Positions 26,978-36,751 of a stretch of DNA of 63,193 nucleotides are shown here, in pieces (the first letter of the stretch is position 1; every line of letters begins with the position of its first letter). Source of the DNA: an uncultured Gemmatimonas sp. GTDB taxonomy: Bacteria; Gemmatimonadota; Gemmatimonadetes; Gemmatimonadales; GWC2-71-9. The stretch lies in assembly GCA_964521535.1 (NCBI GenBank), contig CAZFSA010000002.1, forward strand, positions 1 through 63,193, read 5' to 3'. The position numbers and the translations under genes were made by a program. The notes beneath the pieces were generated by a model, which saw only the letters and a list, made by a program, of their open reading frames with translations, did no database searches and was not told the DNA's origin.

Positions 26978-28273
26978 CTACTTCACGCGAACGATCTTGA
27001 GCCCGCCGAGGCCCCCCGCCACCAGGAGATGCTTGGCCCGGTAGGCCACATGGTTGGCGGACTGGAGCCGGGCGAACCGAAGCCGGCCGAGCACCGCGAT
27101 CGTCTGGGGCGCTTCGCTGCCGGTCGACGAGAAGGCGGTGGCGCCCTGGGCCAGGTAGACGCCCGCCTCGCCGTTCGAGATGAACAGCAGGTCGTCCTCC
27201 GCCGACACCGCATTGGTCACGACCACCGAGGGCGACAGGCCCAGCTCCGCCGGATCCGGGCGGGGTACCGAGCCCAGCAGCGCGCCGGTTACCGTGCTCA
27301 GCACCTGCACCCCTGCCGGGCCCGCGGCGAGGAACGCCTTCCCGCCGGCCACCTCGACCGTGGACTTCGACTCGGCCACGTCGGCGCCCTGAAAGGGGAA
27401 GGTGCCCAGGCTGGACAGCGTCGCCTCGTCAAGGACGGCCAGCCGGCCCGGGGTACCCTGCGCCACAAGAACCCGACCGCCCGCGACAGCCACCCATCGG
27501 GCGTCGTCCATCGGAAGGAACCGGACCAGCGTCAGCGAACTGCGGTCCAGCACGAAGAGACCCCCACCATCGCCCGCGGTGGCATAGACCCGGTTGCCCG
27601 AGGCGGTAACACCCGTCCCGGCATAGCTGGAAAGCCCGGCACGGCGACTGGCCGCGCCGGCCAACACGCTGCCCCGCAGCTCGAGCAGGTCCAGCGCCGC
27701 CGGGGCCTCCAGCGACTCGTCGCCGGTCGCACCAGCCAGCAGCACGTCGCCGCCGAGCACGTCGACCGCGTTGACATCCATGTTCTTGTAGAGCGCCTGC
27801 GACTTGAGGACCGGCCGGCTTTCGTTGGTGATGTCGATCACGTCCACCCCACCCAGGTACGGCTCGCCGATCATCGCGTAACTCACGACCGCGAGGTTGC
27901 CCCGGACCGCCACGGACGTGGCCTGAAGAAGCTGTCCGCCGATCGAAGGTGGCGCGATCTCCGCCGTCAACTCCAGCGACGGGGCAAGCATGGCCGACTG
28001 ACTGCCACCAGCCCAGCCGCTGGTGGCCGCAGCCCTGGAGTACCCGACGCCGACCTGGTCCACCTGGACCACCTCGGCGTGGTAGGTGATCCGGCTGGCG
28101 AAGGCAGCCGGATCGCTGGTGATCGAGACGTGGGCGTCAGAGTAGTCCGGCGGCGGGGCCGGCGGCGCCACCGGCCCGGTGGAGTCGCCGCACGCCGCCA
28201 GGAGGACTGGCAGCATGCAGCCCGCGACTACGAGACGCAACCGGCTGAAAGCCAAAGGCCATCCCCTGAGCAT
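26978..28273 (-). CDS. Beta-propeller lipoprotein (LVIVD-repeat-like)
   Basis: Signal/lipobox MLRGWPLAFSRLRLVVAGCMLPVLLAACG. Repeated ~40-aa units are present (NLAVVSY..., DVLLAGA..., NRVYATA..., GRVLVAQ..., GKAFLAA..., DLLFISN..., KHLLVAG...). An alternative start lies at 28216. Confidence 0.65.
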   Translation of the reverse strand: MLRGWPLAFSRLRLVVAGCMLPVLLAACGDSTGPVAPPAPPPDYSDAHVSITSDPAAFASRITYHAEVVQVDQVGVGYSRAAATSGWAGGSQSAMLAPSLELTAEIAPPSIGGQLLQATSVAVRGNLAVVSYAMIGEPYLGGVDVIDITNESRPVLKSQALYKNMDVNAVDVLGGDVLLAGATGDESLEAPAALDLLELRGSVLAGAASRRAGLSSYAGTGVTASGNRVYATAGDGGGLFVLDRSSLTLVRFLPMDDARWVAVAGGRVLVAQGTPGRLAVLDEATLSSLGTFPFQGADVAESKSTVEVAGGKAFLAAGPAGVQVLSTVTGALLGSVPRPDPAELGLSPSVVVTNAVSAEDDLLFISNGEAGVYLAQGATAFSSTGSEAPQTIAVLGRLRFARLQSANHVAYRAKHLLVAGGLGGLKIVRVK

Positions 28274-31088
28274 TCACGGACCTCAGGGATGGCAAGTCCC
28301 GTTCCCAGCTGAACGAGCACCCGGAATGCACGCCCTTGCACCTCCGGGCCTTCGAGCCTGGGGGCGAGCCTCGCCCCACCATTCCGCCGGCTCCCAGCCG
28401 GTACGGAAGGGCATCGGCAGCGCGCCCTGCCTGCGACCCGCCGGTGGCGCGGTTGGAGCGATCCAGCCCGGCGAGCCGCCTCGTGGCCAGCGCCGACAGC
28501 ACGGGCCAGGTCTCGAAATCGGGATCGGGGATCCGGAACCGCTCCACCGCGCGGTACAGCTCCGCCGCGCGGCCGCGGTCACCGGCAAGCATCGCCACGT
28601 CCGCCTCGAACAAGGCCACTGTGCTGGTCGACCGCCCGTGGAAGGTCTCCTCCCGGCTCGCCGCGAGATGCCAGGCGGCCTCGGCAGGCCGCCCCTCAAG
28701 TGCGGCCCGGGCGCCCGCCACCGTACGCAGAGCGAGACTGTAACTCCTGAGGCCGCGGCCGGCATCGAGAAGGCGAAGGGCAGCGCCCTCCGCCGTGACC
28801 AGCCGGTGATCGCGAAGCCACGCGCCCAGGATCGCCACCCGCTCGTGAAGCCGGGCGAGGGCCGCCGCCGAGAGGTCGGCGCGGTCCACCCAGGCCTTTG
28901 CCTCCCACGCCAGCCTGCGGGCGCCCCCGGTGTCGCCCGCCGCGCTCTCGGCGATGGCCTGGAGAATCAGAGCGCGTACCGCGAACTGGCGCGGCGGCAC
29001 GATGCGAGCGAGCTCGGGAATCATCGCCCGGGCTTCCTCCAGCCGGCCCAGCGCCAGGGTCGGCGCGTGCCGGCGGTAGTCCCGGCGGCGGGCGGCGTCG
29101 TCTGCCGGGAGACCCTGGAGCGTGGAATCGAGCACCGCGAGCGCGCCCGGCCAGTCGCGGCGGATCAGCGCCGTGAGGTACCTCGCCTCGTGGTAGGGCC
29201 GGGGGTCACGCGCCGCCAGCGCGCCAGTGACGGCGAGGGCCGCAGCTGTATCGCCGACCGAGATCAGGGCGTAGAGCCGGTTGTTGATCGCCGGGACCCC
29301 CGCCGACGGGTCGAGCTGGTAGGCGGTGTCGGCTGCCGCGGCCGCGGCCCGATGCTGACCGAGCGCCCGAAGGGTCCAGGCCATCCCCTCATAGGCCAGC
29401 ACCTCGTTCGGGTACGCGCTCCGAAGCTGCAGGTAGTTGGCGAGCGCGCTGTCGGGACGATCGGCGACCAGCTGGTAATACCGCGCCCCCACCAGCAGCC
29501 GCTCACGGATCGGGGCCAGATCGGCCAGCGCCCGCGCGCGGGTGAGGTGCGTCTCGGCATGGCGCTGCTCGTCGGCCCACCAGAGGAGGTCACCCACGAG
29601 GTAATGGGCCAGGGGAAAGAGGCTGTCGTGCGCGAGGGCTCCCTCGCCCAGCGCAAGCGCCGCCGGCCGGTCGCCGCGGGCGAGCGCCACCCGGGCGAGG
29701 GCATACTGTTCCAGCGCCTCGAGGGAGGCGGTGGTGACCGCAGGGAGCGGCCGAGCCGCCGAGTCCACGGGTAGCCTGCTCAGCTTGGCCCGAAGCTTCC
29801 GGGCCACGCGGCCCACTTCGGCGATCACCTGATCGGCCCGTTCCGGGCGGGCGCTCACCGTAACCACGGGGCTCCGGGCGCGTGAGGGCACAACCTGGAT
29901 CACCAGCTGCAAGCCCCCGGCCAGCGGCGCCACGCTGCCCGTGATTGCGTATTGCGCGCCGTGCCGCTCGGCGACGTCCAGCACCACGGGCGGAGTGAGG
30001 CGGGTGGTGGGCGGTAGCTGCATCAGGGCCAGCACCTCCCGGATCCGGAACTCGTCCACCAGACGGATCCCACCGTCACCGGCGAGCTCAGCCCGGAGGG
30101 CCTCTCGCACGGCCATCGCCATCACGGAGTCGGCGCCCGCCAACTCCCCGAGCACCGCAACCCGGGGTGCGGCGGGAGCGTGTGACAGGAAGCGCGGCAG
30201 CACGAGGCCGACGGCGAGCCCAGCCGCGGCCACCGCCAGCACCAGGCTCGACTTCCGGGTCCCGCTCCCCCGCCGCGGGCGCAGTCCCGATCCCAGGGCG
30301 TCGGCGGAGCGTCCCGCAGGCTCTACGGCCGGCGTGGCGCTCGCACCTACGGCTACCGGCTCCGGTCCACCCGGCGGCGGTGCCAGGCGGAGCTGCCCCG
30401 CGAACCCCTCCACCGCCGGATCCGGCTCGGCATCCAGCTCGGCACGGAGCAGTTCGGCGTGAACGCGGGCGTGCCGGATGGCGGCGGCGCGGTCGCCGGC
30501 GGCGCTCAACGCCTCCATCAGTGAGAGCGTCACCCGGGCATCGAGGGGATCGAGCGCCGCCCGGCGGCGCCACCACCTGGCTGCCACCGCGTGATCGCCG
30601 GCCGTGGCGGCGCGGGTGGCGAGCGCTTCCAGCGCCTCTGCCATCGCCGCCGCCAGCTCGCTCCGCTCGGCTTCCACCCACCGATCAAACTCGGGAGCAC
30701 CGTCGATGAAGAACCCGTCCAGGAAGGGACCCGCGTAGATCGAGACCGCCCGCTCGGGATCGCCTCGCTTGAGCGCGGCGCGCAGCTCGCGCACATCCGA
30801 CCGGACGATCGCAGGATCGAGCCTGAGCTCGTCGACGCCGGCCATGATCGCCGCCTCGCCCAGGTCCCGCCGGAGCGCCGACAGCAGCTGCGAGAGCGAG
30901 TGCCGTCCCCGCTCCTCGTCCCGTTCCGGCCAGAGCAGCGCGACGATCTTGTCGCGGCGTACCGGTCGCTCGTCAGCAGCCGCGAGGTAGGCGAGCAGCG
31001 CCAGGCGGCGGCGCTGGGTGGCCCGGCCCTCGAGCGGCCGACCGTCCCGCTCCAGGGAGATACCGCCCAAGGTCCTGAGCCGGAACAT
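28137..31088 (-). CDS. SARP/BTAD-family transcriptional regulator with TM segment and C-terminal TPR array
   Basis: Trimmed to ATG 31088 (MFRLRTLGGISLERDGRPLEG...). Domains, in order:
- Winged-helix OmpR/SARP domain (RRRLALLAYLAA..., LWPERDEERGRHSLSQLLSALRR).
- BTAD domain (...RAVSIYAGPFLDGF...EAER).
- Hydrophobic segment SSLVLAVAAAGLAVGLVL.
- About 600 aa of TPR-like helices.
The last ~100 codons are low-complexity and overlap the next gene. Confidence 0.8.
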   Translation of the reverse strand: MFRLRTLGGISLERDGRPLEGRATQRRRLALLAYLAAADERPVRRDKIVALLWPERDEERGRHSLSQLLSALRRDLGEAAIMAGVDELRLDPAIVRSDVRELRAALKRGDPERAVSIYAGPFLDGFFIDGAPEFDRWVEAERSELAAAMAEALEALATRAATAGDHAVAARWWRRRAALDPLDARVTLSLMEALSAAGDRAAAIRHARVHAELLRAELDAEPDPAVEGFAGQLRLAPPPGGPEPVAVGASATPAVEPAGRSADALGSGLRPRRGSGTRKSSLVLAVAAAGLAVGLVLPRFLSHAPAAPRVAVLGELAGADSVMAMAVREALRAELAGDGGIRLVDEFRIREVLALMQLPPTTRLTPPVVLDVAERHGAQYAITGSVAPLAGGLQLVIQVVPSRARSPVVTVSARPERADQVIAEVGRVARKLRAKLSRLPVDSAARPLPAVTTASLEALEQYALARVALARGDRPAALALGEGALAHDSLFPLAHYLVGDLLWWADEQRHAETHLTRARALADLAPIRERLLVGARYYQLVADRPDSALANYLQLRSAYPNEVLAYEGMAWTLRALGQHRAAAAAADTAYQLDPSAGVPAINNRLYALISVGDTAAALAVTGALAARDPRPYHEARYLTALIRRDWPGALAVLDSTLQGLPADDAARRRDYRRHAPTLALGRLEEARAMIPELARIVPPRQFAVRALILQAIAESAAGDTGGARRLAWEAKAWVDRADLSAAALARLHERVAILGAWLRDHRLVTAEGAALRLLDAGRGLRSYSLALRTVAGARAALEGRPAEAAWHLAASREETFHGRSTSTVALFEADVAMLAGDRGRAAELYRAVERFRIPDPDFETWPVLSALATRRLAGLDRSNRATGGSQAGRAADALPYRLGAGGMVGRGSPPGSKARRCKGVHSGCSFSWERDLPSLRSVNAQGMAFGFQPVASRSRGLHAASPPGGVRRLHRAGGAAGPAAGLL

Positions 31089-31154
31089 CTTGCGCGCGGT
31101 TGACGATAGCCGGAGAGATGGATGACCGGCGACTTCTATCATACCGGCCGAACC

Positions 31155-31195
31155 GGGGGGGCAGCAAGCAGAGCCCGACGGGGCTCTCCCCCCCC
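31155..31195 (+). promoter_or_regulatory. Structured 5' leader element upstream of the PCC-module operon
   Basis: A G7 run (31155-31161) and a C8 run (31188-31195) flank a perfect hairpin, AGAGCCC-GACG-GGGCTCT (31170-31187). The element ends 8 nt before the GGAGG RBS (31203-31207) of the gene starting at 31215. Confidence 0.35.
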
Positions 31196-31214
31196 ACGAA
31201 TCGGAGGTCACCGC

Positions 31215-31775
31215 ATGCGCCGCCTGGTTGGCACCCTCCTGGCAATCGCGGGGTGGGCCGTACCCGCCGTGGCTCAGCAAGGCGGGGCCCGGCCCGCGTC
31301 GGCCACGCCGTGCTGCGCCATCGCCTCGATCGACCGGTCCACCGGGGTGGTCACCGCGCGTGAGACCGCCACCGGCCACGTGTTCCGCTTCACGGTGAAG
31401 GATCGTACGCTCCTGTCGCAGCTTCGGACCGGCCAGCAGGTCTGGGCCGACTACGCCTCGGGGACGGTGAGCGTCGAGCCCGGCGACCCCTGCTGCGCGA
31501 TCATGCCGGCCCCGGCTGCGGACGCCCAGCCGGATCCGGTAGAGCCCTGTTGTGGCGTGACGGCGGTGGATCGTGCCACCGGCGTCGTAACCGCCCGGGT
31601 AACGGCCAGCGGCCGGCTCTTTCGCTTCCAGGTCACCGACGCCGCGCTGCTCCGTTCGCTGGCGCCACGCGCCAGGGTCTGGGTCCTCACGAGGGGCGGT
31701 ACCCGGCAGGTAGGGCTTCGTCCGGGAGAACCATGCTGCAACGTGGTCGGCGCCCTCCCGCCGGACCTGCCATGA
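31215..31775 (+). CDS. Secreted protein with two tandem ~60-aa modules each bracketed by vicinal Cys-Cys (PCC) motifs
   Basis: GGAGG RBS lies 7 nt upstream of ATG 31215. Signal peptide is MRRLVGTLLAIAGWAVPAVAQQ. Module 1 is PCCAIASIDRSTGVVTARETATGHVFRFTV...GDPCCAI. Module 2 is PCCGVTAVDRATGVVTARVTASGRLFRFQV...GEPCCNV. Confidence 0.75.
   Translation: MRRLVGTLLAIAGWAVPAVAQQGGARPASATPCCAIASIDRSTGVVTARETATGHVFRFTVKDRTLLSQLRTGQQVWADYASGTVSVEPGDPCCAIMPAPAADAQPDPVEPCCGVTAVDRATGVVTARVTASGRLFRFQVTDAALLRSLAPRARVWVLTRGGTRQVGLRPGEPCCNVVGALPPDLP
31308..31742 (+). repeat. Intragenic tandem duplication (two PCC-bracketed modules)
   Basis: Module 1 spans 31308-31499 and module 2 spans 31545-31742. Shared pattern: PCC-x3-(I/V)D(R)xTGVVTARxTAxGxxFRFxVxDxxLLxxL...VW...PG(D/E)PCC. 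Confidence 0.8.
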
Positions 31776-31808
31776 GGGGTGCAAAACCGCGCGAACAGCC
31801 ACCCCTCA
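31773..31808 (+). terminator. Intra-operon stem-loop (attenuator / partial terminator candidate)
   Basis: Perfect 9-bp stem TGAGGGGTG (31773-31781, includes the stop codon) / CACCCCTCA (31800-31808) with an 18-nt loop. It lies in the 64-nt gap between the first and second operon genes. No U tract. Confidence 0.35.
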
Positions 31809-31839
31809 TCCCGCCCACCCTTCATGTTCGAGGCTTTCC

Positions 31840-33519
31840 GTGACTTTGTCCCCTGATGGGACCCGCTCGGCCGCCCCAAGGCTCGTGATCGGGGTGATGC
31901 TCATGCTCGCCTCGCCGGCCGCCGCGCAGGCGCCGACCGCCCGCGGCCCCGCGTTCAAGGGTATCTGGGAGCCGGTGAGCTACTCCGAGGACCTCGACCT
32001 GGCCGACGTGTTCTTCGTCACCACCGACATCGGCTGGGCCTCCGGTAAGGGGGGAACCATCCTCCACACCCGCGACGGCGGGGCCACCTGGACCGCACAG
32101 CTGGGCGGCGATCCGGCGTCGACCGACTCCCGGATCGACCGGCTCCGCTTCCTGGACGAGCACCGGGGCTGGGCGATCCAGGACAAGAAGCTGCTGCAGA
32201 CCGCCGACGGGGAATCGTGGGAGGAGGTTGCAACCTTCCCGTTCCGGCCCGGCGACCTCGCGTTCGTCTCGCCCCGCCGGGGCGTGGTCGCCCTGGGCGC
32301 CACCGCCCAGAGCTACCCTGATCAGGTGCAGCTCACCACGGATGGCGGCCGCACCTGGAAGCCGGTGGCAGCCTGCGTGGTCAAGGTGACCATCGACGGC
32401 CTCAACCGGACCCTGCGCTGCCAGATCGAGCAGTTCCACTTTCCCAGCGCCTCGGTGGGATACTTCGTGGCGCGCGTGCAATGCGTGGGCATGGGATGCG
32501 GCGGGCCGCCGATCCTGGGGAAGACCGAGGATGCTGGCGAGACCTGGCAGCTCCTGATCGGTCCGGGCGACGTCAAGCTGACGGCGCTCCGCGATCTCTT
32601 CTTCACCGATGAGGCCACCGGCGTGGTGACGGCGTCGGACAAGAGGGTCTACCTCACCACGGATGGCGGCGCCACCTGGCGGGGTATCGTCGCCACGCCC
32701 GGCACCTGGACCCGCTTCGCCGATCCCGAGGTGGGCTGGTCCTTCCACGAATACCACCTGAGCTACACCGTCGACGGCGGCACGCGCTGGCTGTCCCGGC
32801 CGCATCGGTTTCCCGCCGCTCCGCGGGCCCTGAGCCTCCCCCGGCGGGATCGAGCCTACGTGGCCGGCGACCACGGCATGGTCTTTCGTTACCGGGTCGT
32901 GCCCGCGTCCACCCCGACGGCGCAGGGCGTGATCGTGACCGCAGCCATGCCCGCCTTCACCTCGCCCCTCGAAAACGAGGCGGCCCGGGTGATCCCGGTG
33001 ATCGACGAACTGAAGGCAGCGGTGGCGAAGGCGCCCGGACCGGGCGCGCCCAATGGCGGTGCGGCAGCCCGTGACAGTGCCGCCAGCGTCGACCCGCCGA
33101 GCCCGGAACAGGTCGTGGCGCAGGCGCCCTCGGGCTTCACCAGGACCTGCTGCACTCAGCCACTCAACAAGCTCGGGCTCCTGATCACCGCACTGGGCCG
33201 AAGTCTGCCCGCCTTCCTGGCGCAGTACCGGAACACCAACCTGCTTGCCGCCGGCCTCCGGATGATGGCCGACCTGCCGGGCCGCTTCGGCGAGCTGCGC
33301 GCGGCCCTCGGCGCCTTCAAGCAGGCAGGCGACAAGGCGGCGGCCGAGGCCGCGCTGGTCCGGATCGAGGCCGCGGCCGCCGAACTCCACCAGTCGGCCA
33401 GGGCAGCGTTCCAGAGCGAGGTGCCGCCGCCCAGCCGCGACGCGGCGGAGGACGATCGGGCGGAAGGACAGAGTCCCGTGACCACGCCCCGCTCGCTCCT
33501 TGCCCCCAACCGCTCCTGA
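31840..33519 (+). CDS. Secreted BNR/Asp-box (Ycf48/sialidase-like) beta-propeller protein with C-terminal helical extension
   Basis: GTG start with signal peptide (…RLVIGVMLMLASPAAAQA). Repeated S/TxDGGxTW boxes are present (TRDGGATW, TADGESW, TTDGGRTW, TEDAGETW, TTDGGATW, TVDGGTRW). The ~190-aa Ala-rich helical tail contains TRTCCTQP (CC at 33148-33153). Confidence 0.8.
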   Translation: MTLSPDGTRSAAPRLVIGVMLMLASPAAAQAPTARGPAFKGIWEPVSYSEDLDLADVFFVTTDIGWASGKGGTILHTRDGGATWTAQLGGDPASTDSRIDRLRFLDEHRGWAIQDKKLLQTADGESWEEVATFPFRPGDLAFVSPRRGVVALGATAQSYPDQVQLTTDGGRTWKPVAACVVKVTIDGLNRTLRCQIEQFHFPSASVGYFVARVQCVGMGCGGPPILGKTEDAGETWQLLIGPGDVKLTALRDLFFTDEATGVVTASDKRVYLTTDGGATWRGIVATPGTWTRFADPEVGWSFHEYHLSYTVDGGTRWLSRPHRFPAAPRALSLPRRDRAYVAGDHGMVFRYRVVPASTPTAQGVIVTAAMPAFTSPLENEAARVIPVIDELKAAVAKAPGPGAPNGGAAARDSAASVDPPSPEQVVAQAPSGFTRTCCTQPLNKLGLLITALGRSLPAFLAQYRNTNLLAAGLRMMADLPGRFGELRAALGAFKQAGDKAAAEAALVRIEAAAAELHQSARAAFQSEVPPPSRDAAEDDRAEGQSPVTTPRSLLAPNRS

Positions 33520-33531
33520 GGGGAGGCTCTC

Positions 33532-34443
33532 ATGAGGCGTGTATCGTTCGCCCGAGCGAGCCCGTGCGGCGCGTTCGCCGCGGTGTCACTGTTCGCCCTG
33601 GCTTCGACCCTCGCCGCACAGCGGCCGGCGCCGACGCTACCTGTGAATCCGGCCGCGGCGGCGGCGGTCGCCGCGGCGTTTCGCGAGGCACTGGGACAGC
33701 CCGCCGGGCGCGCTGCGGTCCGCGCCGAGGTCCTGCGCCAGTTGCGCCGCAACCACCCCGCCGCGCTGGTATCGGGGCTCTGGGTGACCCCGGCCGATCT
33801 GGGTTCCATCCTCGCCGCGCCGGCCGTCCGCGTCGTGCTCACCGCCAAGCTCGGCACCGCGGGGCTTCGGACCGTCGACGCTATGATCGCCGACCCCTCA
33901 CGCCGCATCGGCCTGATCCTCACCCCCTCGTGGCTGGGCCCACTGCTCATGGGCGACCTGGCCCGCGACATCCTTGCCTCGATGGGTGTCGAGGCGGCGC
34001 GGAACCAGCGGACGGACGTGGCCGCCGTCGACGACGTCCTCCTCGTCACCATGGCCTTGTTCGGCGCTGGCCTGATTATCGGCCTTTGGGGCGGCGAACT
34101 GATTCACCACTGGTTGGATCCTGCCCCTGATCCCGCGCCGCCGCCATTCAACCCCAATGCGGACCTCGATGGCGACGGCCTTCCAAACTACAAGGACGAC
34201 GATGACGACGGTGACGGGTACAACGACGAGGATGAACACTACCCCGATGATTCCACCCGGCACATCTGCGACTGCGGCCGACCGGGCGCCTACTTCGGGT
34301 CGAGCCTCACCCCGGGCGCGATCCGCGGGATCAACGCGGCCATCGATCTCGCCCAGTCCCAGCTCCGGAGCGCGATCCCGGTGGGTCCGGTGGCAGCGGG
34401 CCGCGCCGGAACGATCCGGGTCATCGTCCCGACCGTTCCCTGA
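33532..34443 (+). CDS. Secreted/membrane protein with Asp-rich Ca-binding-like (thrombospondin type-3-like) segment
   Basis: GGGGAGG RBS upstream of ATG 33532. The protein has a signal peptide, an internal hydrophobic helix (VLLVTMALFGAGLIIGLWGG) and the segment NADLDGDGLPNYKDDDDDGDGYNDEDEHYPDD (34153-34251), followed by a CDC motif. Confidence 0.7.
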   Translation: MRRVSFARASPCGAFAAVSLFALASTLAAQRPAPTLPVNPAAAAAVAAAFREALGQPAGRAAVRAEVLRQLRRNHPAALVSGLWVTPADLGSILAAPAVRVVLTAKLGTAGLRTVDAMIADPSRRIGLILTPSWLGPLLMGDLARDILASMGVEAARNQRTDVAAVDDVLLVTMALFGAGLIIGLWGGELIHHWLDPAPDPAPPPFNPNADLDGDGLPNYKDDDDDGDGYNDEDEHYPDDSTRHICDCGRPGAYFGSSLTPGAIRGINAAIDLAQSQLRSAIPVGPVAAGRAGTIRVIVPTVP

Positions 34444-34470
34444 ACCCGCCGACCCGCGAGGAGGTACCTC

Positions 34471-34992
34471 GTGACCATCGCCTCTCTCGACCACGCTGCC
34501 ACTCTCCTCGGCGCCGGATTGCTGGCCGGCCTGGCACTGGCCCCCACGAAGGCCGCCATGCGCGAGCAGGACCCGGCGGAACCGTGCTGCAGCATCACGG
34601 CCATCGATGCCTCCAGACGCCAGGTCACCCTGCAGCACAACCAGGGATCCACCACCTTCGAGGTCCTGCTCGCCGCCGGCGCTCAACTCCGACAGCTCCA
34701 GGTGGGCCAGCGGGTGAGCCTCTCCGGCGTGTCGCGGACGCTCGTAGTCCCCCGCGGGGTCTCGCCCCTGCTGCTCCGGGCCGCCACGATTCGCGCGATC
34801 CCGCGCGAGCCAGCCCCGGGTGGCGCGGTGGCGAGCGCCGCGAGCGCGCCGTCCGGCGATTTCCGCCGCTCGCCCGCCACCAAGGGTAGGTGCCCAAGCA
34901 TCAAGGAGACGCCCACCGAGCAGTGCGTGCTCACCCACGACCTGAGCGGCTCCGGCCAGGGATGCGAGTACTACTGCGTCCCGCGCAAGTGA
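34471..34992 (+). CDS. Secreted protein with one PCC-type module and Cys-rich tail
   Basis: GAGGAGG RBS lies 6 nt upstream of GTG 34471. After a hydrophobic N-terminus comes EPCCSITAIDASRRQVTLQHNQGSTTFEVLL...LQVGQRVSL, the same module as in gene 31215-31775. The C-terminal tail carries 4 Cys (CPS...QC...GC..YC). Confidence 0.65.
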   Translation: MTIASLDHAATLLGAGLLAGLALAPTKAAMREQDPAEPCCSITAIDASRRQVTLQHNQGSTTFEVLLAAGAQLRQLQVGQRVSLSGVSRTLVVPRGVSPLLLRAATIRAIPREPAPGGAVASAASAPSGDFRRSPATKGRCPSIKETPTEQCVLTHDLSGSGQGCEYYCVPRK

Positions 34993-34993
34993 C

Positions 34994-35014
34994 CGGCTGA
35001 CGGAACGTCGGCCG
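34994..35014. terminator. Hairpin between convergent genes
   Basis: CGGCTGACG-GAA-CGTCGGCCG forms a 9-bp stem with one G-U pair and a 3-nt loop. It starts 2 nt after the stop at 34992. No U tract. Confidence 0.3.
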
Positions 35015-35065
35015 AGGCTCCGGTGTTCGGCACGTCGAGGGACCCGGAGCGCGCCGCGCGAAGCG

Positions 35066-36751
35066 TCACCGTCGAGTCGAATGCACGACCTCGCCCGCGA
35101 TCACGGTCATCACCGGCGTCGCCGTAAGAATCTCGGCCTCCGGCACCGTCATCAGGTCGCGATCGAAGACGGTCAGGTCCGCCCACTTGCCCGGCTCGAG
35201 GGTGCCCCGGACGTGCTCCTCGAAGGCCGCGTAGGCCGCCCACACCGTGAACATCCTGAGCGCCTGCTCCCGCGTCACCTTCTCCTCAGGATGCCAGAGC
35301 GAATCAGGCCCGGCGTTCCCGCGGATGTCCCGTCGGGCCACCGCCGCGTAGAACTCGATCCGCGGATCGCCCCGTTCCACCGGCGCGTCCGACCCGCCGG
35401 CCACCGGCAACCCGAGCTGAATGAAGCTCTGCCAGGCGTAGGCCCCCGCCAGCCGCCGGGCGCCAAGCCGGGCGGGCGCGAAGTAGAGGTCGCCGATCGC
35501 ATGGGAGGGCTGCATCGAGGGAATCACGTTCAACGTCCGGAACCGGGGAATGTCCGCGGGGCTCACAATCTGCGCATGCTCGATCCGCCACCGCGGCTCC
35601 GCCACCACCCGATCGCCAGCCGGGACCGCGCGGAACGCCCGCTCGTAGAAATTCAGCGTGAGCCGGTTCCCCCGATCGCCGATGGCGTGAGTTTCCACCT
35701 GCACCCCGCGCCGGAGCGCCCGCTCGAGCATCGCCAGGTAGGCGACCGTGTCGGTCGTGAGCAGCCCGCTGGTCGCGCGATCGTCCGAGTACGAATCCAG
35801 GAGCAGCGCGCCCCGGGAGCCCAGGGCGCCATCGATCGCCACCTTGATGGCCCGCACCGTGAGCCGACCGCCGAACTCCCGCGGCCCCGGGCCCAGCGCC
35901 AGGAGCGAGTCCGCGTCGGGGCCGGGACCCCGGATCGCCTGGTAGACCCGGAGCTTCATCCGGCCCTCGCGATAGAGCCGCCGCATCCGGGCCACCTCGT
36001 CCCAGTCGCCCCCGGCGTTCTGGACCTGAGTCCAGCCCCACTCGGCGCTCTTGCGGGCGCCGATCACCAGGGCCGAGTCGCGGTGGGCCTCGTCGGGCGG
36101 GGGGATGTGGCGCGCCACCAGCCCCTGCGCCCGGTCGATCAGCATCCCGGTCAGGTCGCCGCCAGCGTCCTTGTTGAGCGCTCCCCCCTCGGGGGCGGGC
36201 GTCGCGCGGGTGACGCCAGCCAGCTCCAGCGCCCGGGTGTTGACCACCGACGCGTGGCCATCGGCGCGGACCAGGAACACCGGGTGGTTGGGCGCGATGG
36301 CGTCCAGGTCGTGCCGGCTGGGAAACGCCTGCGGCGTCCAGAAGGTCTCGATCCAGCCCCGCCCCACCACCCACTCGCCGGCCGGAGTCTGATCAACCCG
36401 CTCCTTGACCCGGGCCAGGAAGGCCTCCTTGGTATCCGTGCCTTCCAGGTTGAGCACCATCTCCCGCTCACCCACCCCACTCAGGTGGTAATGCGCGTCG
36501 GCCCAACCGGGAAAGACGGTGGCGCCCTCGAGATCCACCACCCGGGTCGCCCGACCCTGGTGCCGCTCGGCATCGGCGCGGCTGCCGACGAACAGAATCG
36601 TCCCGCCCTGGATGGCGACCGCCTCGGCCCGGGGCGCACCGTCCACCCCGGTGTACACGTTGCCGTTGACCAGGAGCAGGTCGGCGGTGGGGGCACCGTC
36701 GCAGCCAACCGCGGCCAGCGCGATCGTCAGAAAAAACAAGGAGGCGCGCAT
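35066..36751 (-). CDS. Amidohydrolase-3 family metal-dependent hydrolase (YtcJ-like), lipoprotein
   Basis: MRASLFFLTIALAAVGC lipobox. Motifs LLVNGNVYTG, FPGWADAHYHL and the C-terminal GSDAPVE are typical of the family. Confidence 0.8.
   Translation of the reverse strand: MRASLFFLTIALAAVGCDGAPTADLLLVNGNVYTGVDGAPRAEAVAIQGGTILFVGSRADAERHQGRATRVVDLEGATVFPGWADAHYHLSGVGEREMVLNLEGTDTKEAFLARVKERVDQTPAGEWVVGRGWIETFWTPQAFPSRHDLDAIAPNHPVFLVRADGHASVVNTRALELAGVTRATPAPEGGALNKDAGGDLTGMLIDRAQGLVARHIPPPDEAHRDSALVIGARKSAEWGWTQVQNAGGDWDEVARMRRLYREGRMKLRVYQAIRGPGPDADSLLALGPGPREFGGRLTVRAIKVAIDGALGSRGALLLDSYSDDRATSGLLTTDTVAYLAMLERALRRGVQVETHAIGDRGNRLTLNFYERAFRAVPAGDRVVAEPRWRIEHAQIVSPADIPRFRTLNVIPSMQPSHAIGDLYFAPARLGARRLAGAYAWQSFIQLGLPVAGGSDAPVERGDPRIEFYAAVARRDIRGNAGPDSLWHPEEKVTREQALRMFTVWAAYAAFEEHVRGTLEPGKWADLTVFDRDLMTVPEAEILTATPVMTVIAGEVVHSTRR

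Follow-up and report, generated by a model that had tools for sequence, protein, structure and literature searches.

Vicinal-cysteine PCC-module proteins and a Ycf48-like propeller as the apparent core of a soil-bacterial gene cassette in an uncultured Gemmatimonas

The Cu(I)/Ag(I) site of CusF is formed by His36, Met47 and Met49 with Trp44 as a cap, and vicinal cysteine pairs bind soft metals in MerA/MerT, ArsD, Cox17 and CopG. Ycf48/HCF136 is a propeller protein involved in the assembly of photosystem II (PSII). The Gemmatimonadota and Acidobacteriota, two phyla abundant in soil, are difficult to culture, and most of their exported proteins lack annotation. We have analysed a stretch of 63,193 nucleotides (nt) of contig CAZFSA010000002.1 from an uncultured Gemmatimonas sp. 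(hereafter the window; about 70% GC), in which four plus-strand genes, A to D, encode exported proteins and lie divergent from the gene of a SARP-type regulator. The genes A (31215-31775) and D (34471-34992) specify proteins with a domain that we call the PCC module after its Pro-Cys-Cys motifs; B (31840-33519) specifies a Ycf48-like propeller and C (33532-34443) an acidic protein of the Ca-binding type. When the locus was first described it was not recognized as a known system, and this has held: neither Pfam, NCBIfam, PADLOC and the Protein Data Bank (PDB) nor the literature supplied a counterpart. Literature searches, together with term checks in a polymorphic-toxin catalogue and in a review on extracytoplasmic function (ECF) sigma factors, turned up no mention of the PCC module or of the cassette. 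Since literature and family databases yield nothing, we treat the cassette as one without a described counterpart.

We propose that the PCC module is a disulfide-stapled extracytoplasmic handle that partners with the propeller protein B, and would give this reading a probability of about 0.42. According to the proposal, the four cysteines of a module would pair across the two terminal strands as disulfides, producing a rugged handle and not a metal site. The handle would dock its protein onto B, which could act as receptor, scaffold or chaperone, and docking would bring a group of exported enzymes, some of them lytic, to their site or into an assembly. On this model A and D would be handles without cargo that could serve as adaptors, competitors or structural units, and C would be an accessory partner of the Ca-binding type. 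Expression might be set by an envelope-spanning regulator whose class depends on the lineage; here this would be a SARP-type protein with a winged helix-turn-helix (wHTH) and BTAD, one transmembrane (TM) segment and a large periplasmic repeat part. The function of the module is something that we infer from the comparisons set out below.

The PCC module is a real domain family. It comprises about 62 residues with a vicinal Cys pair at each end. A profile hidden Markov model (HMM) of the module, such as the preliminary description had called for, was searched against 1.84 billion cluster representatives (clusters at 50% identity) and matched 1068 clusters at E <= 1e-3, of which 628 reach E <= 1e-10. 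A word-indexed search with A recovered just 20 relatives, all keeping the bracket pattern [E/T/D]PCC-x-I..ID..TG.VTA....TG..F.F.V.D..LL..LK.GQ.V.A[DN]F....V.......PCC. There is no NCBIfam or PADLOC family for the module, and a profile search of the PDB gave chance-level matches only; scans of A to D and of the neighbouring genes in related loci with Pfam, NCBIfam and PADLOC assigned no family to the module, to C, to the tail of D or to the large domain PCC-L described below. The family thus appears to be undescribed.

Protein A (186 residues, secreted) consists of two modules and nothing else. As first described, both modules are bracketed by PCC: the module HMM places module 1 at 31308-31502 (111 bits) and module 2 at 31545-31745 (94 bits), and all eight Cys residues lie in four PCC motifs (residues 33/34, 93/94, 112/113 and 174/175). 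Every one of these pairs is kept in the homologues of A. Among 273 unique full modules the four Cys residues are complete in 246 (90%), in agreement with the earlier expectation that the pairs would be conserved. Losses within a module are correlated (Fisher p from 1e-6 to 1e-18), and in a mean-field direct-coupling analysis the pairs C4-C64, C5-C64 and C4-C65 rank among the top 13, beside true beta-hairpin contacts. Because loss of the opening pair goes with loss of the closing pair and the two show direct coupling, disulfide pairing within the module is suggested, although a shared metal site would also predict the joint loss of four Cys residues. Modules without any Cys do occur in the family, and the cysteines are therefore not required for the fold itself; they would stabilize rather than create it. 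The number of Cys residues per family protein is even in 133 cases and odd in 34, which again supports the disulfide reading.

Protein D (173 residues, exported) had been taken for a second PCC-module protein with a Cys-rich tail. The tail and the opening PCC stand, but the closing PCC does not. The single module is degenerate (34579-34770, 65 bits with the module HMM), and a four-Cys tail, C..IKE..T.QCVLTH..CEYYCVP (34891-34983), takes the place of the closing pair. In the D family, with its five homologues, the opening CC and all four tail Cys residues are invariant. The comparison with four related sequencing samples (L001-L004; the other L-numbers used here denote loci of relatives from genome and metagenome scans) is informative in this respect, as the L001 copy of D (L001:12427-12951) has lost both Cys39 and the tail residue Cys165, going from six Cys to four. 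This joint loss may reflect a bond between the opening pair and the tail, and it lends support to disulfide formation. A C..C..C.Y.CVP tail is also present on a 179-residue protein encoded just upstream of B in Acidobacteriota-type loci (L009, L010, L061 and L078); its likeness to the D tail is marginal, with E = 0.007 in a single comparison.

How the module is deployed was surveyed in 167 family proteins. The first module starts at a median position of residue 33, directly behind the signal peptide, and at or before residue 70 in 156 of them. Two modules are present in 122, the range being one to five copies per protein. At least 150 residues follow the last module in 76 proteins, 67 are module-only like A, and the 40 residues behind the last module have a high content of Ala, Pro, Gly and Ser. 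The cargo found behind modules in relatives includes a GH25 muramidase, an alpha/beta-hydrolase, a DUF5122 propeller, and CARDB, PKD, chitobiase-type and lamin-tail domains. The N-terminal position, the tandem copies, the Ala/Pro/Gly/Ser segment and the diversity of cargo suggest a handle that serves for binding or anchoring.

The commonest cargo occurs in a protein type that we call PCC-L, which was seen at 16 of 25 loci from genomes and at 15 of 80 from metagenomes (for example L015:7896-10097, L009:5518-7761, L019:7935-10052 and L034:9330-11516, and others). In it a Pro/Ala linker joins a single PCC module to a conserved domain of 600 residues with ten conserved Cys residues, whose motifs include GESDHYIVN, FYIPCLPF, PPTGGP.IPI, DLDWG and HLWFRDLAPGGSNALV. 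The 600-residue domain has no match in Pfam, NCBIfam or the PDB. PCC-L is not encoded in the window, where A and D are module-only; the arrangement of a constant N-terminal module with variable C-terminal domains is held by the relatives and not by these two proteins. Clustering of neighbouring genes brought out neither a secretion marker nor a recurrent family of small downstream genes, and no search was aimed at immunity genes or secretion systems.

The case for B as the partner comes from gene order. A scan anchored on the module, for which a consensus-type module alignment was run over 185,579 species genomes, returned 25 loci, all of them in soil metagenome-assembled genomes assigned to Gemmatimonadota, Acidobacteriota/Terriglobia, Dormiibacterota, Nitrospirota and Proteobacteria; patterns of the A type, applied to the same 185,579 genomes, found no relative. 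In 20 of the 25 loci a homologue of B (36-50% identity over about 520 residues) lies on the same strand within a few kb of the module, and four of the remaining five have short flanks. Loci combining module and B come from at least four phyla (Gemmatimonadota, Acidobacteriota, Dormiibacterota and Proteobacteria). For the window itself, the best matches of B, of the regulator and of the C contexts make a source in the Gemmatimonadota probable. When a metagenome scan was instead anchored on B, a module was present in 40 of 80 loci, and in 23 of the 35 that have at least 2.5 kb of downstream flank; the modules were always on the strand of B and usually less than 500 bp from it. Synteny of module and B in other genomes, as first proposed, is thus seen from both anchors, and as the constant neighbour of the module B is the obvious candidate for its partner.

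These counts bear directly on the possibility that there is no system at all, with A, B, C and D being unrelated exported proteins that are adjacent by chance and whose Cys pairs are incidental. In the closest relatives C is absent and the regulator has decayed, a D-type protein occurs without B, and one third of B homologues have no module nearby, all of which such a chance assembly would accommodate. It would have to contend with a linkage of module and B that is recovered independently from the two anchors and across phyla, with homologues of C in the same type of cassette in two other lineages, and with four genes on one strand separated by gaps of 12-64 nt. The two-way synteny counts largely refute this explanation, which we regard as very improbable.

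The same data revise the picture of a four-gene unit. An extracytoplasmic cassette is conserved, as the linkage of module and B from both anchors indicates, but the set of four genes is not fixed: C is sporadic, the D type occurs without B, and samples L001-L004 keep A, B and D without C. On the evidence of gene order, B and the module proteins are the constant core. The locus in the window is a minimal copy, devoid of cargo, of an apparently undescribed cassette found widely among soil bacteria. A second recurrent neighbourhood of small PCC proteins was also observed (L005-L007, L009:9739-11343 and L023); it has no B, and the PCC genes are followed by those of OmpA-like proteins and of membrane proteins with Coa1-like or DUF3592-like matches.

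Protein B (559 residues, secreted) is, as first described, a BNR/Ycf48-like propeller with a helical C-terminal tail that carries a vicinal Cys pair. The propeller corresponds to approximately 31951-32919 (the N-terminal 330 residues or so) and scores 55.1 bits with PSII_BNR (PF14870; cutoff 27). The Ycf48 chains 2xbg, 5ojr and 8am5 in the PDB match B at E values of about 1e-17; against the Ycf48 equivalog NF010237 it reaches 61.9 bits, the cutoff being 326. The tail (approximately 33130-33423) is predicted to be helical and opens with the CC of a TCC motif (33148-33153, residues 437/438). This CC is kept in 15 of 18 B homologues across phyla, and two Cys residues of the propeller are invariant. 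The two Cys of the tail pair are in every case either retained or lost together, in support of the disulfide reading.

Zn-dependent phospholipase C (PLC)-like proteins in related cassettes also end in a helical tail, with the pattern WG.RCC..D(I/V)A.LR (L028:9983-12151, L034:11435-13693, L020:6360-7445, L033:11262-12242 and L057:5647-7905). An HMM of the B tail recognizes these tails at E values from 2e-4 to 3e-3 with the CC aligned, which suggests that B and these enzymes share a tail module.

The recurrence of CC on modules, on the B tail, on the PLC-like tails and in an internal FPCCKNPF of a second PCC protein raises the possibility of thiol docking or cross-linking. Exposed cysteines would form reversible or permanent intermolecular disulfides between modules, the B tail and the homologous PLC-like tail, giving a covalently joined assembly at the surface or in a matrix, or else a redox relay. 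Module variants with one CC exist, and the B tail, being helical behind its CC, could pair as a stapled dimer. The strong coupling between opening and closing CC in the same module favours pairing inside the domain and counts against this explanation. Neither does the CC of B co-vary with the presence of a module (Fisher p = 0.70), and the clustered neighbours include no recurrent thioredoxin- or Dsb-like gene. We consider it unlikely.

The structure of the module brings in another alternative. An AlphaFold2 (AF2) model of a single module, based on a 69-sequence alignment, has a predicted local distance difference test (pLDDT) score of 78 and displays three strands followed by a short helix, then two more strands and, at the end, one bearing the closing CC. 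When this model and that of full-length A were compared with the PDB by Foldseek, the hits were OB domains only (Mpa, HypC, CSD), none below E = 0.03. Weak matches to CusF_Ec are found for 19 of 23 modules, with E = 2e-4 for the best single module. The module would seem to be a remote CusF/TOBE-like OB barrel that falls below the Pfam cutoff.

Such a barrel might bind soft metals, a role raised in the preliminary description. On this view Cu(I), Ag(I), Hg(II), Cd(II) or As(III) would be bound by four thiolates, or by one vicinal pair, on a CusF-derived periplasmic barrel. The role of metallochaperone or metal sponge would fall to A and D, and the module-bearing enzymes would be loaded with metal or protected by it. 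The CusF_Ec matches are remote but consistent, multi-module relatives reach 34-44 summed bits and one of them has been named CusF by the Joint Genome Institute (JGI), CusF chains are among the few sequence matches of the module profile in the PDB, and A is about the size of a periplasmic chaperone. What the module lacks is the ligand set. In an alignment with CusF (3e6z) the Met ligands in MTMRF lie opposite GrtFqF, and the 69-sequence module alignment shows no conserved His, Met or Trp. A and D score 18.3 and 14.7 bits, respectively, against a Pfam cutoff of 27 for CusF_Ec.

Nor does the genomic context suggest metal handling. Motifs of P-type ATPases, HMA domains, multicopper oxidases, MerA and CusA were found in none of about 110 loci searched as six-frame open reading frames (ORFs), and there are no metal-homeostasis genes among the recurrent neighbour clusters. 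An Rfam scan of 30900-35200 gave no family and no metal riboswitch, and Pfam gave no metal-type regulator. Lysozyme, hydrolases and adhesin-like domains are among the fusion partners of the modules, and even Cys parity in proteins exported to an oxidizing periplasm points to disulfides. With its ligands missing, no metal context and fusion to lytic enzymes, the soft-metal role is left with a remote resemblance to CusF, and we judge it to be quite unlikely.

Several observations weigh against the stapled handle that we prefer. The opening CC is present alone in seven of the 273 modules and three Cys residues remain in eight, variants that a simple two-staple model leaves unexplained; moreover, a pair of disulfides that join two strands through vicinal cysteines would be chemically unusual. 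The AF2 model of full-length A is poor (pLDDT 58). The link between module and B is drawn from gene adjacency, and about a third of the B homologues with adequate flank have no module nearby. As noted, the tail CC of B does not follow the presence of neighbouring modules, and one D-type homologue is not located beside B. The role of a handle is extrapolated from relatives because the proteins of the window carry no cargo.

A bolder form of the proposal can be put forward, in which the Gemmatimonadota, the Acidobacteriota and neighbouring phyla of the soil would possess a new docking or targeting pathway made up of the PCC module and the CC-tailed B. Here the vicinal cysteines would themselves do the docking and be more than staples; they would hand lytic enzymes (the muramidase, the phospholipase and the 600-residue effector), covalently or reversibly, to the propeller for display or release, as an antibacterial or predatory sorting system. 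This is a speculative extension that we hold to be distinctly doubtful.

Protein C (303 residues, exported) had been described by its Asp-rich stretch and CDC motif, and both are present: DLDGDG...DDDDDGDG is encoded at 34162-34251 and CDC at 34267-34275 (residues 246/248). The motif D.D.DG..D.DDD.DG..D..P.D..ICDCGR, which ends in the ICDCGR that contains the CDC, is invariant in a seven-sequence alignment of the C family. The stretch resembles TSP3 (Bacterial TSP3, PF18884), with a score of 12.2 bits against a cutoff of 25, and a PDB search with the C profile produced chance-level matches only. An internal hydrophobic segment of C is not conserved in its paralogue. Homologues are few, five in 5.8 billion proteins. 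Those examined occur in other cassettes that carry B-type propellers. In L034/L035 a divergent BTAD regulator is accompanied by two C paralogues, a small PCC protein, PCC-L, a phospholipase C-like protein and B; in L036/L037 the order is B, a 191-residue protein and C. From these contexts C is best regarded as a rare but recurrent member of the cassette.

The regulator gene (28137-31088, minus strand; 983 residues) is divergent from A. The product had been described as a membrane-anchored SARP-TPR protein. BTAD (PF03704) is matched at residues 91-228 with 46.6 bits (cutoff 22.1) and a single TM segment is located at residues 280-298, in keeping with that description; the TPR assignment is sub-threshold. 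TPR_2 gives only E = 0.1, and TIGR04510 matches residues 313-822 partially, with 123 bits against a cutoff of 400. The part predicted to be periplasmic, of about 685 residues, is helical-repeat in character (TPR-like). Trans_reg_C falls just short in the window protein (24.1 bits, cutoff 26.2), and the homologues in L001 and L034 carry the Pfam match. The 3' end of the gene has a same-strand overlap of 137 nt with an ORF for an LVIVD-repeat-like exported protein (26978-28273, minus strand), the real start of which is probably further downstream; this protein is kept only in the close relatives L001, L002 and L004.

Control of an A-D operon by this regulator is predicted from the divergent arrangement. 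The suggestion that it co-regulates the cluster is helped by the recurrence of SARP-type regulators next to B, in the window, in L019 (a homologue of 45% identity, divergent from B), in L034 and in 11 metagenome loci. It is weakened by variation of the regulator class with lineage and by the state of the gene in the closest relatives. In L001-L004 (85-89% protein identity) it is a pseudogene (L001:8600-9900), interrupted by an in-frame stop behind AIV and missing residues 166-688 or thereabouts, the TM segment included; A, B and D are intact there and C is absent. Three regulator classes are found interchangeably upstream of B: the SARP type, a CadC/HilA-like wHTH-TM-TPR type, and an ECF sigma factor with a zf-HC2 anti-sigma factor and a TPR-CHAT protein. 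The last set fills the regulator slot in Gemmatimonadaceae-type loci (L015:304-4440, L020-L022, L024, L025 and L028; CHAT E = 5e-60), and the N-terminus of the TPR-CHAT protein resembles a lipoprotein signal. This set could be a protease-gated sigma switch.

The layout of the locus is as originally reported. ORF calling agrees on all five frames and on gaps of 64, 12 and 27 nt between A and B, B and C, and C and D, respectively, and third-codon-position GC (GC3) is of the coding type in all five (0.84-0.89; 0.84 for C), the shadow frames being unlike this. Of the three GGAGG-type ribosome-binding sites that had been counted, those 5' of A (GGAGGTCACCGCATG), C (GGGGAGGCTCTCATG) and D (GAGGAGGTACCTCGTG) are confirmed; GAGG alone precedes B. 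The divergent intergenic region, which includes the 5' leader of A (31089-31214, plus strand), is 92% identical to its counterpart in L001, a value above that of the flanking proteins. It contains a hairpin at approximately 31154-31197 with a G7 run and a C8 run on its sides (fold z = -2.84). A promoter scan upstream of A found no sigma-70 consensus. The cluster had been seen as bounded downstream by a hairpin and a convergent gene, and both are there: a GC-rich hairpin of 9 bp 3' of D (34993-35014, plus strand) and, beyond it, an amidohydrolase gene on the minus strand (35066-36751; Amidohydro_3, E = 9e-101). The hairpin has no T-run, its fold is not significant (z = -1.3), and a terminator scan found none behind D.

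The analysis newly defines a domain with vicinal Cys pairs at both ends in more than 1000 protein clusters, its constant Ycf48-like propeller partner in lineages that appear to be non-photosynthetic, and a set of enzymes that the module carries. Should the module prove to be a targeting handle, it would mark a set of secreted, partly lytic enzymes together with the machinery that organizes them; should it harbour a tetrathiolate metal site, the CusF fold would gain a new branch. In both cases a searchable module HMM and a defined minimal A-B-C-D locus for expression are now available.

Among known systems, modular secreted enzymes and polymorphic effectors share with the relatives of A and D a constant N-terminal module, an Ala/Pro/Gly/Ser segment and variable cargo that includes a muramidase and a hydrolase, often with several paralogues per locus. 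They differ in that the PCC module matches no known trafficking or carbohydrate-binding family, that no known secretion marker or immunity gene was identified (neither being specifically examined), and that A and D of the window carry no cargo. The regulator is SARP-like in its BTAD, preceded by a probable OmpR-type wHTH, and in being divergent from the genes that it would control. Classical Streptomyces SARPs are cytoplasmic activators of antibiotic clusters, whereas the protein of the window is predicted to span the membrane with a periplasmic repeat part of 685 residues; its single TM segment and periplasmic sensor part are reminiscent of ToxR/CadC.

With CusF_Ec (PF11604) and TOBE (PF03459) the module has in common, as predicted, a small exported five-stranded barrel with one short helix, and the multi-module relatives exceed the Pfam score when their bits are summed. 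The module differs in that a Cu(I) site of His, Met and Trp is missing and neither cusCBA nor any other metal context surrounds it. One more strand is present at its end, its first and last strands each bear an invariant vicinal Cys pair, and it occurs in tandem and at the N-terminus of large enzymes. Protein B resembles Ycf48/HCF136 in its BNR propeller domain but scores far below the equivalog cutoff. The Ycf48 chains, of 326-347 residues, are without the linker of about 200 residues and the CC-capped helical tail of B and, unlike Ycf48, B is found with secreted PCC proteins in apparently non-cyanobacterial soil lineages.

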